The notes beneath the pieces are model-generated. The model did not search any database. It was not told where the DNA came from and worked only from the letters and a program-made list of their open reading frames with translations. A stretch of DNA of 64,000 nt, taken from positions 13,282 to 77,281 of the forward strand of contig CACGLH010000006.1 of NCBI GenBank assembly GCA_902573735.1, in the 5' to 3' direction. This document shows positions 45,524 to 50,921 of this stretch, in pieces. Position 1 is the stretch's first letter. Each line of letters starts with the position of its first letter. The translations under genes and the position numbers were made by a program. This DNA comes from an uncultured Alphaproteobacteria bacterium (GTDB lineage Bacteria > Pseudomonadota > Alphaproteobacteria > Rhodobacterales > Rhodobacteraceae).

Positions 45524-46303
45524 ATGCAATACTTCCAAAAATATTATATAGAGGTAAGTTGGCTATTTTTTTACTTAGTAATAATCATCAGTTGGATCTT
45601 AATATTTTTAATGATACTAGCCTCAGATAATGAAGCAAGTATTGAAAATTTCTATGGATCAGAATTTCTATCTACGTTATGTCAACCCATAAATAAAATG
45701 AGTGATTGGCCCTATGCGTTCCTTATGTGGTCTTTAATGGGTATAGCAATGATGGTTCCCACAATACAACCCACATTAAAAACTTTTGATGATTTGAGTA
45801 ACTTACATTATGTATCGAACTTCGGATTTGTCTCGCTTTTATTTGGATTTATCGTAGTTTGGATCATCTTCTCTGGTGTCGCATCTTTATTACAAATTTA
45901 TTTAACACAATTAAGTTTGGTAAAATCTGACGGTATTTTTATACATTTTATTCCCTCTGTTACTTTACTTTTTCTTGCAGCCATTTATCAATTTTCTGAT
46001 CTAAAAAAAGCTTGTTTACATAGATGCAGGCATCCACTTTTATTTTTTTTAAATGATTGGAATGGTAGTTTTGTAGCTTCTTTTATTGTTGGTTTAAGAG
46101 TTGGTTTATATTGTTTAGGTTGCTGTTGGCTTCTTATGATGCTTGCATTTGTAGGTGGAGTGATGAATTTGGGTTTTATGGGTTTAGCAACATTAGTCAT
46201 GATAGCTGAAAAACTTCCAGATTATGGACGTTACGTAACTTTGCCATTATCTCTTTTACTTTTGATTTCTGGATCAATAGTTGTTATATCGAATTTAATT
46301 TAG
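45524..46303 (+). CDS. Polytopic membrane protein, DUF2182-like (predicted metal-binding)
   Basis: 259 aa with about 6 TM helices. Has MWSLMGIAMMVPT, CLHRCRHP and CLGCCW motifs, matching my recollection of DUF2182/COG5486. Confidence 0.55.
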   Translation: MQYFQKYYIEVSWLFFYLVIIISWILIFLMILASDNEASIENFYGSEFLSTLCQPINKMSDWPYAFLMWSLMGIAMMVPTIQPTLKTFDDLSNLHYVSNFGFVSLLFGFIVVWIIFSGVASLLQIYLTQLSLVKSDGIFIHFIPSVTLLFLAAIYQFSDLKKACLHRCRHPLLFFLNDWNGSFVASFIVGLRVGLYCLGCCWLLMMLAFVGGVMNLGFMGLATLVMIAEKLPDYGRYVTLPLSLLLLISGSIVVISNLI

Positions 46304-46316
46304 AAGGAAATTATAA

Positions 46317-46952
46317 ATGAAGCCAGTATTAACAGCCTTTTTAAAAAAGTGGAAAATAAAGGGAGAATTAATATTAAATTGTAATTGCACTGTATTTTGT
46401 CCGTGTGTTGTTAGTTTAGGGAAACATCCTCCTACAGAAGGATTTTGCCAAGCTTGGGCTGGTATAAGAATTGATGAGGGATTCTATGACAAATATGACT
46501 TATCAGGTATCAATGTAGCAATGATGTTAGAAATTCCTGGTAGAATGGCCAGAGGTAACTGGAAGGCTGCAGTATTTATTGATGAAAATGCTAGTACGGA
46601 AGCTTACGATGGATTAGTTAAAATATTAAGTGGGCAAGCTAGGGGTACTACTGGACTATTTACAAAATTAGTAAGTGAAATTATGGGTGTTGAAAGTGCT
46701 GCTATTTCATATACTACAGAGGGTAAAACAAGACATTTAACTGTTGGCAATAAGATACAAGGTTCAATTACTCCTATAGTTGGTAATGATCCTAATGAAG
46801 AGGTCATGGTTAAAAATACAAGATACTGGATGGGTTCTGATATAACAGTATCTGCTGCAGATAAGGGAAGAGTAAGAGCTTTTGGCAGAGTATGGGATTT
46901 TAAAGGCTTGAGTTCAGAAATTTGCCAAATTGACTGGCACGGGCCTAACTAA
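46317..46952 (+). CDS. Soluble Cys-rich protein, DUF1326-like
   Basis: 211 aa with an N-terminal CNCTVFCPCVV cluster. It starts 13 nt after the DUF2182-like gene, and the two families are known to pair. Confidence 0.5.
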   Translation: MKPVLTAFLKKWKIKGELILNCNCTVFCPCVVSLGKHPPTEGFCQAWAGIRIDEGFYDKYDLSGINVAMMLEIPGRMARGNWKAAVFIDENASTEAYDGLVKILSGQARGTTGLFTKLVSEIMGVESAAISYTTEGKTRHLTVGNKIQGSITPIVGNDPNEEVMVKNTRYWMGSDITVSAADKGRVRAFGRVWDFKGLSSEICQIDWHGPN

Positions 46953-46986
46953 AATTTGAGTAAATAAATTAAATAAGGAGAAGAAA

Positions 46987-48228
46987 TTGGCTGAAAAAGA
47001 AGTTTATGAGTTAGGTGATAAACCGCAATTAGGTGTAGTTCCAAAGAAAATGCATGCTTTTTTAGTAAGACAAGATAGATTTGGAGCTCCAAAAGATGCT
47101 TGGAAAAGAGAAATAATAGATGTTCCAACTCTAGGACCAAAAGATGTTTTAGTTTATGTTATGGCAACTGGAATAAATTATAACAACGTCTGGGCTGCTC
47201 TAGGTTATCCTATAGATGTTATAGCAATTAGACAAAAAAAGGGAGAGCCAGAAGATTTTCATGCGGGTGGTTCTGATGCATCTGGAATTGTTTGGGCCAT
47301 TGGTAGTGAGGTAAGTAATGTAAAAGTTGGAGAAGAAGTTGTTATTCATTCGGGAACTTGGGCTCCTGATGATCCTTGGGTTGTTTCGGGGAAAGATCCT
47401 ATGCTTGCACCCAGTGTAAAAGTATGGGGATATGAAACAAATTATGGGTCTTATTGCCAATTTGCTAAGGCACAATCTCATCAAATATTAAAAAAGCCAC
47501 AACATTTAACTTGGGAAGAGTCTGCCTGTTATATGCTATGTGCCTCAACAGCTTATCGTCAATTAATGGGATGGACTGGGCATACTGTTGAAAAAGACGA
47601 TGTCGTTTTAGTCTGGGGTGCAGCTGGAGGTCTTGGTGCTTTGGCTCTTCAAATTGTTGCTGCTTTGGGCGGTAAACCGGTTGCAGTTATTTCAAGTGAA
47701 GATAAAAGACAATTTTGCTTAGATAAGGGTGCTGTTGGAGTGATTAATCGAAATAATTTTGATCATTGGGGTGTTTTACCAGATACGGACTCTGCAGATT
47801 TTAAAAATTGGGTTTCAGGAGCTAGGGCTTTTGGAAAAGCTATTTGGGATATTATAGGTGAACGTAAAAACCCTAGAATAGTTTTCGAACATCCAGGAGA
47901 AGCTACATTGCCTACTTCATGCTACGTTTGTGATTTAGGTGGAATGGTTGTTATCTGTGCTGGCACAACTGGTTACAATGTTTCTTTAGATCTAAGGTAT
48001 CATTGGATGCAACAAAAAAGACTTCAAGGTTCACATGTAGCTAATGATGAACAATCTAGGGCAGTCAATGAATTAGTAATAGCAAAAAAAGTTGATCCAT
48101 GTTTGTCTGAAACTTATAGTTTTGATCAAATAGGACATGCACATCAATTAATGCATGATAATAAACATCCTCATGGGAATATGGCTTGTCTGGTAAATTC
48201 GTTATCTAAAGGGCAAGGACGTTCTTAA
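46987..48228 (+). CDS. ccr: Crotonyl-CoA carboxylase/reductase family enzyme
   Basis: TTG start, 413 aa. The whole length resembles Ccr as I remember it ([76 protein letters not shown]). Confidence 0.8.
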
Positions 48229-48300
48229 GGTTTTGAAAACTTTTATTGAATTTTTATTTATACATAAAATTGAATACACCTTTAGTGAAAGATTTTTCTA

Positions 48301-49539
48301 TTGAATAGGTTAGATGTTGATTTTGTAAGAAAACAATTTCCCAGTTTTCAATTTGAGGAGGTAGTAGGCAATGGCTTCTTCGAAAATGCGGGCGGTAGTT
48401 TTATGTCTAAGCAAGTAATTGAACGACTTGGTAGATATCATAATCAGAGAAGAGTTCAACCTTATTGGGTATTTAATTCGTCAAAGTTAGCTGGTGAAGA
48501 AATGGATGAATCCAGATCAAGAATGGCTGCTTTATTGAATGTCAGTAATAGTAGTCTACATTTTGGTCCTTCAACTAGTCAAAATACCTATGTTTTAGCA
48601 AATGCCTTCAAAGATCTCCAAACTGATAGAAAAGTCATTATAGTAACCAATCAGGATCATGAAGCAAATTCTGGAGTTTGGCGAAGATTAAAAAATTTTG
48701 GATATACTGTAAAAGAATGGAAGGTTAGAAAAAATACAGGATCTTTGGTTTTAGATGATTTAATAAAAATTTTGGATAAAGATGTTTGTTTGGTTACTTT
48801 CCCTCATTGTTCAAACATCATAGGTGAAATTAATCCTGTTGAGAAAATATGTGAATTATCAAAAGAAAACGGTTCTTATACTTGTGTAGATGGAGTTAGT
48901 TATGTTCCTCATTCATTTCCTAATATTAAAAAAATTGGATGTGATATTTACATGTTTTCAACTTACAAAACTTATGGACCTCATTTAGGTATAATGTATG
49001 TTGATGAAAATTTAAATAAGTTGTTACCAGTGCAAGGACACTATTTTAATGCTGAAGACCCAACTAAAACTCTAACACCAGCTGGTCCTGATCATGCGCA
49101 AATTGCATCCGTTGCTGGAATAGTTGATTACATTGAAGAAATTGATAGGCATCATTTTAAAGATAATGAGGAAATAGCTACTCATTTAAAAGCAGAAAGA
49201 ATAGGTAAATTACAGCGTGAGGCTGAAAGTGAAATTCTATTGCCTCTTTTAAATTTTTTAAAACAAAAAAAAGGAGTTAAAATTTTAGGTAATATGGATC
49301 TTTCTATAGACAAGAAAGTTCCAACTATTTCAATTGATGTCAAAGGTGATGTAGATAGAGTAGTTCAACAATTAAATAAGAAAGGACTAATGGCTGGGTC
49401 AGGTGATTTCTATGCTGTAAGATTACTTGAAACGTTAGGTATTGAATTACCTGCGGGTGTGCTTAGATTAAGCTTTGTCCATTATACGAAATCTAAAGAA
49501 ATAGACTCATTAATAGAAGCATTAGACCAAATATTATAA
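48301..49539 (+). CDS. Class-V aminotransferase-fold PLP enzyme (cysteine desulfurase-like)
   Basis: TTG start. Has VRKQFPSF...FFENAGGS at the N-terminus and FSTYKTYGPH as the putative PLP-lysine context. Confidence 0.7.
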   Translation: MNRLDVDFVRKQFPSFQFEEVVGNGFFENAGGSFMSKQVIERLGRYHNQRRVQPYWVFNSSKLAGEEMDESRSRMAALLNVSNSSLHFGPSTSQNTYVLANAFKDLQTDRKVIIVTNQDHEANSGVWRRLKNFGYTVKEWKVRKNTGSLVLDDLIKILDKDVCLVTFPHCSNIIGEINPVEKICELSKENGSYTCVDGVSYVPHSFPNIKKIGCDIYMFSTYKTYGPHLGIMYVDENLNKLLPVQGHYFNAEDPTKTLTPAGPDHAQIASVAGIVDYIEEIDRHHFKDNEEIATHLKAERIGKLQREAESEILLPLLNFLKQKKGVKILGNMDLSIDKKVPTISIDVKGDVDRVVQQLNKKGLMAGSGDFYAVRLLETLGIELPAGVLRLSFVHYTKSKEIDSLIEALDQIL

Positions 49540-49640
49540 TATTTCATATATTGTTTAAATCAGAGAAAATTTAAAATGTTGAATTTTATAATAATTAAAA
49601 TACTAACCAAAACATTAATTTAACATTTTACGAATAATAT

Positions 49641-50921
49641 ATGAAAAGCCAAAAAATTGCAGTAATTGGAGCGGGTATTTCTGGGCTTGGTTCAGCATTA
49701 ATACTTAGTGAAAATCATGAGGTATATCTTTTTGAGAAAGAAAATAGATTTGGTGGTCACTCAAATACAATAACAATAAATAAAGAAGATAAACAATTCA
49801 AAGTTGATACAGGTTTCATTGTTTATAATGACAATAACTATCCATACTTTTCCAGATTATTATCATACTTAAAAATTAAAACCATCTGGTCAGATATGTC
49901 TCTTGGTTTTTCATTTAATAATAAGAATTTTGAATATGCGTGTGATAATTTAAATAAACTTTTTGCTCAGCGTAAAAATTTCTTTAATTATGGATATATA
50001 AAATGTTTAATTCAAATTTTAAGGTTTAATAAAGAAGCGCCATTACAACTTGGCAGAGGTGATCTGAAAGGATTAACCCTTAATAAGTTTCTTGTGCAAA
50101 ATAATTATAGTAAGTTTTTTATTGATCATCTTATACTTCCAATGGCGGGTGCTATTTGGTCAACAAGTCTTTACGATATTTTAGATTTTCCTGCTGATAA
50201 GTTTGTAAACTTCTTCATAAATCATGATTTAATGACTGGTCTGAAGCCAGCCCAAAAATGGAGAACTATTGCAAACGGTTCGGAGCAATACGTTAACAAA
50301 ATTATTAACAATGTAAGAATAAAATCAAAGCTTAATGCCAATGTAATAAAAGTCGAAAGGTATCAAAATAAATGCTTGATCCATTTTTCTCAAGGTCAGA
50401 GGGAAGAATTTGATCAAGTAGTTTTTGCAATATCTCCAACAATAATTAAAAATATTCTTAGTAATCAAACACCATCTGAAAGTAAAATTCTTTCAAAATT
50501 TAAAATTTCAAAAAATAAAGCTGTATTACATTCAGATCTCAAAGTAATGCCAAGACTTAAAAAAGTATGGTCAAGTTGGAATTTCGTAAATAGTGGACTG
50601 AATGATTTTAAAGAAGATCCTCCAGGTGTAATTTATTGGATGAATAGATTACAGAATATCAATAAAGATTACCCTTTTTTTGTATCACTGAATCCAAAGA
50701 ACGATATTGACGAAAAAAAAATTTATTATGAAACTGATTACACTCATCCTCTTTTTGACATAGAGACGGTAGGGGCTCAAATAGAAATTAATAAAATTCA
50801 GGGAAAAAATGGGGTTTGGTTTGCGGGTGCTTGGTTAGGAAATGGTTTTCATGAGGATGGTTTTGAATCTGCAATAAACATTTCAAAAAAATTTAATAGT
50901 TTACCAGAATGGCTAAAATAG
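49641..50921 (+). CDS. FAD/NAD-binding oxidoreductase, amine-oxidase-like (COG2907-type)
   Basis: KIAVIGAGISGLGSA dinucleotide fold followed by E-x-GG. First gene of the DUF1365/cfa cluster. Confidence 0.75.
   Translation: MKSQKIAVIGAGISGLGSALILSENHEVYLFEKENRFGGHSNTITINKEDKQFKVDTGFIVYNDNNYPYFSRLLSYLKIKTIWSDMSLGFSFNNKNFEYACDNLNKLFAQRKNFFNYGYIKCLIQILRFNKEAPLQLGRGDLKGLTLNKFLVQNNYSKFFIDHLILPMAGAIWSTSLYDILDFPADKFVNFFINHDLMTGLKPAQKWRTIANGSEQYVNKIINNVRIKSKLNANVIKVERYQNKCLIHFSQGQREEFDQVVFAISPTIIKNILSNQTPSESKILSKFKISKNKAVLHSDLKVMPRLKKVWSSWNFVNSGLNDFKEDPPGVIYWMNRLQNINKDYPFFVSLNPKNDIDEKKIYYETDYTHPLFDIETVGAQIEINKIQGKNGVWFAGAWLGNGFHEDGFESAINISKKFNSLPEWLK

Follow-up and report, generated by a model that had tools for sequence, protein, structure and literature searches.

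We analysed a 64,000-nucleotide stretch of DNA from an uncultured alphaproteobacterium (assembly GCA_902573735.1, contig CACGLH010000006.1; hereafter the window), which encodes a homolog of crotonyl-CoA carboxylase/reductase (Ccr) that we call CcrB and that belongs to a separate clade of its family, clade B. Comparison across genomes indicates that in streamlined pelagic Paracoccaceae the ccrB gene has taken the slot of acuI and most likely, with a probability that we put at roughly 55%, its job as well, in which case CcrB would be an acrylyl-CoA carboxylase/reductase feeding methylmalonyl-CoA mutase. AcuI is the NADPH-dependent acrylyl-CoA reductase of dimethylsulfoniopropionate (DMSP) and acrylate catabolism, and acrylyl-CoA is toxic. 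In Cereibacter sphaeroides, Ccr partly backs up AcuI, a point that is not used as evidence here. We infer from sequence comparison both that acrylyl-CoA would be the substrate of CcrB and that carboxylation rather than plain reduction would be the physiological reaction. CcrB would then represent a known kind of enzyme with a new proposed physiological role; the literature that we searched held no paper linking a Ccr homolog with dmdA, acuI or acrylate detoxification.

The acuI slot and the distribution of AcuI

The dmdA-acuI pair is an established acrylate-induced operon of roseobacters (PMC5395565; PMC4029986). In one classical roseobacter (G024) this pair lies in the order gntR (minus strand), PpoB2, DUF1326, dmdA, acuI, photolyase, and cyclopropane-fatty-acid (CFA) synthase, and the core PpoB2, DUF1326, dmdA, acuI recurs in another (G018). 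The clade-B carrier G341 shows gntR (minus strand), PpoB2, DUF1326, dmdA, ccrB, a gene for a class-V pyridoxal phosphate (PLP) enzyme, photolyase, and CFA synthase. In MED-G56-like genomes, a widespread lineage, the order runs PpoB2, DUF1326, ccrB, the PLP gene, photolyase, ufaD, DUF1365, and CFA synthase, and the window repeats this order minus the photolyase. In three genome loci (L007-L009) and the metagenome contigs L103, L104, and L106, dmdA lies 17-20 nt upstream of ccrB, and its product matches NF009133 at 560-572 bits against a cut-off of 410. Judged by gene order, ccrB and the PLP gene sit exactly where acuI sits, and this context ties ccrB to DMSP and acrylate catabolism, a point absent from the original prediction made on this DNA.

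The distribution of the two genes across genera was examined in a survey of the family that covered 300 genera by one genome each, of at least 80% completeness, with AcuI scored by TIGR02823. AcuI was present in 281 of the 300 genera and clade B in 5. AcuI was absent from 4 of the 5 clade-B genera vs 15 of the 295 others (Fisher p = 5.6e-5), a value which overstates the association, given that the genus representatives are related and not independent, and which should be read as a trend and not as a formal probability. Within the genus of the window, none of 15 genomes encoded AcuI, and among the other clade-B carriers outside this genus, which span several orders, 12 of 15 were without it. 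A tblastn search of the source assembly (G000; 1.93 Mb, 61 contigs, 77% complete) with roseobacter AcuI returned no match at E <= 1e-3. Nor does CcrB itself belong to the AcuI/YhdH family, scoring 63.4 bits against TIGR02823 (cut-off 297.25) and 36.9 bits against NF051456 (cut-off 440).

Compared with AcuI/YhdH of Ruegeria pomeroyi, C. sphaeroides, and Escherichia coli, CcrB is likewise, as far as its sequence tells, an NADPH-dependent enoyl-CoA reductase of the superfamily of medium-chain dehydrogenases and reductases (MDR); it occupies the variable position X of the arrangement gntR, PpoB2, DUF1326, dmdA, X, photolyase, and its distribution across genera is complementary. It is, however, only 27% identical over 110 residues, is about 85 residues longer, and has a CO2 pocket, with methylmalonyl-CoA and not propionyl-CoA as its expected product. 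The original prediction had offered several roles for the protein, and a different enoyl-thioester substrate is the one that best fits the acuI slot and the complementary distribution of AcuI.

CcrB, its clade and its pockets

The open reading frame (ORF) of ccrB (Table 1) had been described as a full-length homolog of Ccr, and this description holds. CcrB scored 548.3 bits against TIGR01751, the NCBIfam equivalog for crotonyl-CoA carboxylase/reductase (cut-off 378.55), with residues 17-411 covering positions 3-395 of the 398 in the model, and its top solved structures were AntE (4Y0K, 537 bits), the enoyl-CoA carboxylase/reductase (ECR) of Mesorhizobium metallidurans (9KVA, 526 bits), and the Ccr of Methylorubrum extorquens (4GI2, 468 bits). 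The protein carries the NADPH motif GAAGGLG and the motif LQGSHVAN. Translation starts at a TTG codon common to all seven congeneric orthologues checked. Comparisons with congeners in which dS was unsaturated gave dN/dS values of 0.03-0.04, which indicates that ccrB is under strong purifying selection. Public records label clade-B proteins as crotonyl-CoA carboxylase/reductase, and the nearest public relatives of the source genome are low-GC streamlined metagenome-assembled genomes (MAGs) of Paracoccaceae/Rhodobacteraceae, such as LRMED-261, LRMED-264, and MED-G56.

As originally noted, ccrB is richer in GC than its background (38.1% vs an ORF mean of 30.6%; rank 2 among the 52 ORFs of the window). 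The excess is confined to the first and second codon positions (GC1 55%, GC2 41%), and the third position shows none of it (GC3 18.2%, ORF mean 18.9%). Since GC3 matches the genome mean, the recent horizontal acquisition that the GC content had seemed to hint at was rejected; composition by codon position indicates that the excess stems from the amino acids that a conserved enzyme uses and not from recent import. An older transfer is likely: CcrB is 73-80% identical to its counterparts across Alpha- and Gammaproteobacteria, whereas it shares no more than 50-54% identity with the classical Ccr of its own family.

A tree of 165 sequences resolved classical alphaproteobacterial Ccr (clade A), a mixed group from Chloroflexota, Binatia, and Leptospira, and clade B, which comprises 66 mostly marine sequences that are 68-99% identical to the window protein. 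In the unrooted tree, the split that sets clade B apart had a support of 0.999, and this value is used here in place of the misleading 0.33 from the midpoint-rooted tree. CcrB falls where the original prediction had put it, within the ECR family, in a clade of its own. The clade-B lineage formed more than 120 clusters at 90% identity in ocean metagenomes.

Seven clade-B genomes contain an ecm-like mutase (MED-G56, LRMED-275, cluster2_bin.10, two Hyphomicrobiales, one Aestuariivirgaceae, and one Rhodospirillales MAG), and all seven have two TIGR01751 genes, of which a classical ccr of 608-615 bits (a 347-bit fragment in G053, one of the Hyphomicrobiales) adjoins ecm while the clade-B copy lies elsewhere. 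In MED-G56 the classical copy groups with clade A (support 1.0) and the other copy with the window protein. Clade-B genomes without ecm have no classical ccr; one of them (G055) also has a weaker, 417-bit match to TIGR01751. In roughly 60 loci ecm was never adjacent to the clade-B gene, but it was adjacent to many clade-A and clade-C genes. Because clade B coexists with the classical ccr-ecm pair in seven genomes and never adjoins ecm, its copy number argues that it has a role of its own.

Two loci deserve mention beside this clade. MED-G56 is one streamlined genome with both ECR paralogues, and on its contig 25 (L093, 4289-7688 and 11060-12984) the classical ccr is divergent from ecm, with mesaconyl-CoA hydratase-like and CitE-like genes beside sdhAB, mdh, and sucC. 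The other is a clade-B gene, 70% identical, on a contig (L018, 4447-7227) assigned by binning to Polarisedimenticolia (Acidobacteriota); PpoB2 and DUF1326 lie divergently upstream, and either the block was transferred between phyla or the contig was misbinned.

The CO2 pocket of the Ccr from K. setae (KsCcr) is defined by N81, F170, E171, and H365 (PMC6628652). Residues N66, Y149, E150, and H350 of CcrB align with these, such that all four pocket positions are kept, and they are also in register with the S. collinus Ccr segments NYNSVW, WGFETNFGG, and GSHFAN as well as with the motifs of M. extorquens Ccr. The pocket signature first read by eye (NYNNVW, WGYETNYGS, LQGSHVAN) is therefore confirmed by alignment to characterised enzymes. 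The Tyr of CcrB at the Phe170 position is harmless, because KsCcr F170Y carboxylates fully (PMC6628652) and M. extorquens Ccr likewise has Tyr-Glu at positions 170-171. Within clade B, the residues equivalent to N66, Y149, and H350 are invariant in 66 of 66 sequences, and the Glu171 position holds Gln in 54 and Glu in 12, the subclade of the window being among the latter. The residue after the catalytic His, Phe in classical Ccr, is Leu (54) or Val (12) in clade B. Positions 150 and 351 are perfectly coupled (Glu150 with Val351 in 12 sequences, Gln150 with Leu351 in 54), and both states are present within the genus of the window. Signature residues of clade B are A93, S122, L140, Y156, C157, C185, and H339, of which the clade-specific changes Y156, C157, and C185 fall in active-site segments.

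Table 1. Positions in the window of ccrB, its pocket codons, and the adjoining genes.
Feature	Position	Strand	Evidence
PpoB2 (DUF2182) membrane protein, first gene of the conserved locus	45524..46303	+	PF09948 176 bits; same position in G018, G024, G341
DUF1326 protein, second gene of the conserved locus	46317..46952	+	PF07040 169 bits; synteny
Shine-Dalgarno AAGGAG	46975..46980	+	Six bases 5' of the ccrB TTG start; read from sequence
ccrB, clade-B enoyl-CoA carboxylase/reductase, 413 aa	46987..48228	+	TIGR01751 match, PDB alignments, pocket columns, dN/dS, clade split
N66 codon, CO2 pocket	47182-47184	+	Pocket-column alignment
Y149 codon, CO2 pocket	47431-47433	+	Pocket-column alignment
E150 codon, CO2 pocket	47434-47436	+	Pocket-column alignment
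H350 codon, CO2 pocket	48034-48036	+	Pocket-column alignment
V351 codon, pocket-lining	48037-48039	+	Pocket-column alignment
Class-V PLP enzyme, 412 aa, UstD/FGM3-like, VC1184 family	48301..49539	+	PF00266 150 bits; TIGR01976 244 bits, below cut-off 352

Set against the Ccr enzymes of the ethylmalonyl-CoA (EMC) pathway in C. sphaeroides and M. extorquens (4GI2), CcrB has the same MDR fold, TIGR01751 membership, length, NADPH motif, and four pocket residues, and it shares Tyr-Glu with the M. extorquens enzyme; it differs in its 50-54% identity to the Ccr of its own family, its separate clade, the Val/Leu in place of Phe, and its genus, which is without ecm or mch. AntE (4Y0K) likewise has Val after the catalytic His, but CcrB has no polyketide synthase (PKS) context and bears Leu at the position of AntE A182. 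A role in supplying PKS extender units was rejected, as no PKS genes were found among the annotated neighbours in about 30 loci and L184 of CcrB is of the Ccr type. The M. metallidurans ECR (9KVA), whose structure and oligomeric state are described in a preprint (PMC12632816), has Asn at the Glu171 position where CcrB has Glu.

No EMC gene lies within the 64-kb window, and the original prediction's view of ccrB as an orphan of this pathway extends to the whole genus. Neither MM_CoA_mutase nor MC_hydratase had a match anywhere in the 77%-complete source assembly. The mutase went unfound there because the contig that carries it is absent from the assembly; in all better congeners (e.g., G004:C22:47000-67000, L180) this contig holds a cluster of genes for a PrpE-like ligase, malic enzyme (maeB), methylmalonyl-CoA mutase (mcm), and the propionyl-CoA carboxylase (PCC) subunits pccA and pccB. 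Exactly one mutase, of the MCM type (about 770-780 bits, about 710 aa), was found in 11 of 14 congeners. None of the 14 genomes of the genus has a second, ecm-type mutase, whereas all 10 other family genera sampled possess one, which scored about 425 bits and lay near ccr wherever both were on one contig. Mesaconyl-CoA hydratase (PF19315) likewise had no match in any of the 14 genomes, a search of limited sensitivity given its recovery from 7 of 10 other family genera and from 6 of 6 genomes of one related-family genus. Two congeners that are 96-97% complete have a single MCM-type mutase, no MC_hydratase, and no classical ccr. No true isocitrate lyase was found, the matches being partial and in proteins of 217-313 aa; the only two MaoC proteins of the source assembly are PhaJ-like and about 150 aa each, and its sole HpcH_HpaI protein resembles CitE/RipC and is not clearly Mcl1. 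The possibility that the full EMC pathway is encoded at another site was rejected for the genus, in whose 14 genomes neither an ecm-type mutase nor MC_hydratase was found. Some deep-branching pelagic Roseobacter clusters have been reported without the EMC pathway (PMC12661815). These gene inventories indicate that ccrB works outside it.

Proposed route from acrylate and its alternatives

In the route that we propose, cupin-type DMSP lyases would cleave DMSP to dimethyl sulfide and acrylate, and the PrpE-like ligase would convert acrylate to acrylyl-CoA. CcrB with NADPH would form the enolate, which the intact CO2 pocket would allow to be carboxylated to (2S)-methylmalonyl-CoA, and an epimerase together with the B12-dependent methylmalonyl-CoA mutase would yield succinyl-CoA. 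Without CO2, the product of CcrB would be propionyl-CoA, which PCC would then carboxylate. Congeners encode one or two DMSP_lyase-family cupins each, and dmdA is also present. The PrpE-like ligase, in addition to its place in the mcm cluster, is encoded beside ccrB on the opposite strand in four loci (L013, L114, L121, L125), with a GntR gene between the two in L114 and L121; PrpE is known to ligate acrylate to CoA when DMSP is degraded by cleavage (PMC5395565). With acrylyl-CoA as substrate, classical Ccr forms (2S)-methylmalonyl-CoA by carboxylation at 40% of the rate that it reaches with crotonyl-CoA (PMC10266731). The synthetic HOPAC cycle contains the same reaction as proposed here, acrylyl-CoA plus NADPH and CO2 to (2S)-methylmalonyl-CoA, followed by epimerase and mutase, but it is an in vitro design built on a reaction that M. 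extorquens Ccr performs as a side activity (Km 0.78 mM; PMC10266731), whereas CcrB would be a natural, dedicated lineage.

Several observations weigh against this proposal, which rests wholly on comparative genomics. The source genome, as assembled, is without the contig for prpE, mcm, and pcc. In the genus of the window dmdA no longer adjoins ccrB, while the PpoB2, DUF1326, and CFA flanks remain, and four carriers (G048, G049, G051, G124) have AcuI and clade B together. Outside the Paracoccaceae, the genes that flank ccrB are unrelated in most clade-B loci; an operon conserved across all of clade B was sought and not found, the neighbours there being heterogeneous save for recurrent GntR-FCD and PrpE-like genes. 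The Gln at the Glu171 position in most of clade B leaves the efficiency of carboxylation uncertain clade-wide. Finally, the position after the catalytic His lines the acyl pocket in AntE, where shrinking the residue broadens the substrate scope (PMC6164871), and by this analogy the Val/Leu of clade B hints at a roomier pocket and a substrate larger than crotonyl-CoA. The relatedness of the surveyed genera, given above with the Fisher test, belongs with these points.

The alternative that survives best, which we nevertheless regard as unlikely, is that CcrB replaces AcuI as a plain acrylyl-CoA reductase, with propionyl-CoA then carboxylated by the biotin-dependent PCC and with a CO2 pocket that is inherited but little used. 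The acuI-slot position and the distribution complementary to AcuI apply equally to such an enzyme, pccA and pccB are kept next to mcm and prpE in the genus, and the prevalence of Gln for Glu171 would agree with it. However, all clade-B sequences share the equivalents of Asn81, of the aromatic residue at 170, and of His365 under strong purifying selection, KsCcr E171A still gives 97% carboxylated product (PMC6628652), Glu is kept in the subclade of the window, and PCC is required anyway for the catabolism of propionate and of odd-chain or branched-chain compounds.

Somewhat less probable again is that CcrB acts on another enoyl-CoA linked to the locus, either the methylthioacryloyl-CoA of the DmdA/B/C route or a C5-C6 enoyl-CoA, maybe with the UstD-like PLP enzyme in an undescribed pathway. 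The replacement of the pocket-limiting Phe, the changes at Y156, C157, and C185, the placement of ccrB immediately 3' of dmdA in sister lineages, and the arrival of the PLP gene with ccrB upon replacement of acuI would all suit this explanation. Yet the gene that was replaced is specifically acuI, reduction of methylthioacryloyl-CoA would reverse the demethylation pathway, the large L184 of CcrB, in contrast to its small V351, is the residue of crotonyl-specific enzymes at the AntE A182 position, and clade-B loci outside the Paracoccaceae do not contain the PLP gene. An ordinary crotonyl-CoA carboxylase/reductase for carbon derived from acetyl-CoA or polyhydroxybutyrate, with the other EMC genes overlooked where assemblies are incomplete or with promiscuous enzymes (methylmalonyl-CoA mutase, for instance) standing in for them, is improbable: the TIGR01751 equivalog cut-off, the public labels, the 77% completeness of the window genome, and the presence of two PhaJ-like MaoC hydratases and one CitE/RipC-like lyase speak for it, but the gene content of the two near-complete congeners and the coexistence of clade B with, and its separation from, the classical ccr-ecm pair speak against it.

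For the acrylyl-CoA carboxylase/reductase that we favour, an extension to the whole clade is held more tentatively. Clade B may constitute a natural, dedicated acrylyl-CoA carboxylase/reductase, through which the abundant, streamlined roseobacters of pelagic waters, along with several marine members of the Gamma- and Alphaproteobacteria, would fix one CO2 per DMSP-derived acrylate.

Neighbouring genes and possible significance for DMSP catabolism

The neighbours originally named for ccrB, a DUF2182-like/DUF1326-like pair and a class-V PLP enzyme, were supported by Pfam matches (Table 1). The pairing of ccrB with the PLP gene is real and conserved, the latter following ccrB in all Paracoccaceae carriers and being absent from all other clade-B loci, and the PLP gene came into the locus with ccrB upon the replacement of acuI. 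The best full-length PDB matches of the PLP protein were FGM3 (9X4U) and UstD (7MKV), whereas most SufS/CsdB-type desulfurases align with it only over the N-terminal ~240 residues, and the earlier label of a cysteine desulfurase-like enzyme was rejected on these grounds. That the protein might serve as a C-S lyase on acrylyl adducts is pure speculation.

The PpoB2-DUF1326 pair lies directly 5' of dmdA-acuI in classical roseobacters (compared in L181, L182, and L176), and a second DUF1326-PpoB2 pair lies 3' of a DMSP_lyase-family cupin on the same strand (G000:C39:3031-5403). Because one pair precedes dmdA in roseobacters and another follows the DMSP-lyase-like cupin, gene context suggests that the pair is itself tied to DMSP catabolism; it may, for instance, supply metal to cupin lyases. 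The DmdA that the genus keeps (G000:C26:8752-9846 and G000:C4:48272-49363) passes the NF009133 cut-off and shares no more than 45% identity with the DmdA of roseobacter type that adjoins ccrB in sister genera, and several further GcvT-family paralogues are present in the genus. In L183 (7511-8929) and L176 (10031-11446), a photolyase gene separates the PLP gene from those for furan fatty acids (ufaD, DUF1365, and CFA synthase); it is missing at 49539-49641 of the window.

Much of the carbon and sulfur in the sea passes through the turnover of DMSP, with acrylyl-CoA as a toxic bottleneck for which AcuI is regarded as the standard solution, and gene order indicates that a widespread lineage has swapped acuI for a relative of the carboxylating Ccr. 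If CcrB carboxylates acrylyl-CoA, automated calls that use any "Ccr" as a marker of the EMC pathway would mis-score these genomes. Acrylyl-CoA would be detoxified and methylmalonyl-CoA made in a single step that uses no ATP, such that DMSP catabolism would assimilate inorganic carbon and save one ATP per acrylate. Enzymologists would have in it a natural ECR adapted to a C3 substrate, of use in synthetic cycles of CO2 fixation, and the "new-to-nature" carboxylation of HOPAC would have a counterpart in nature. The sulfur cycle of the sea and dark CO2 fixation by heterotrophs would be linked in a way not recognised before.

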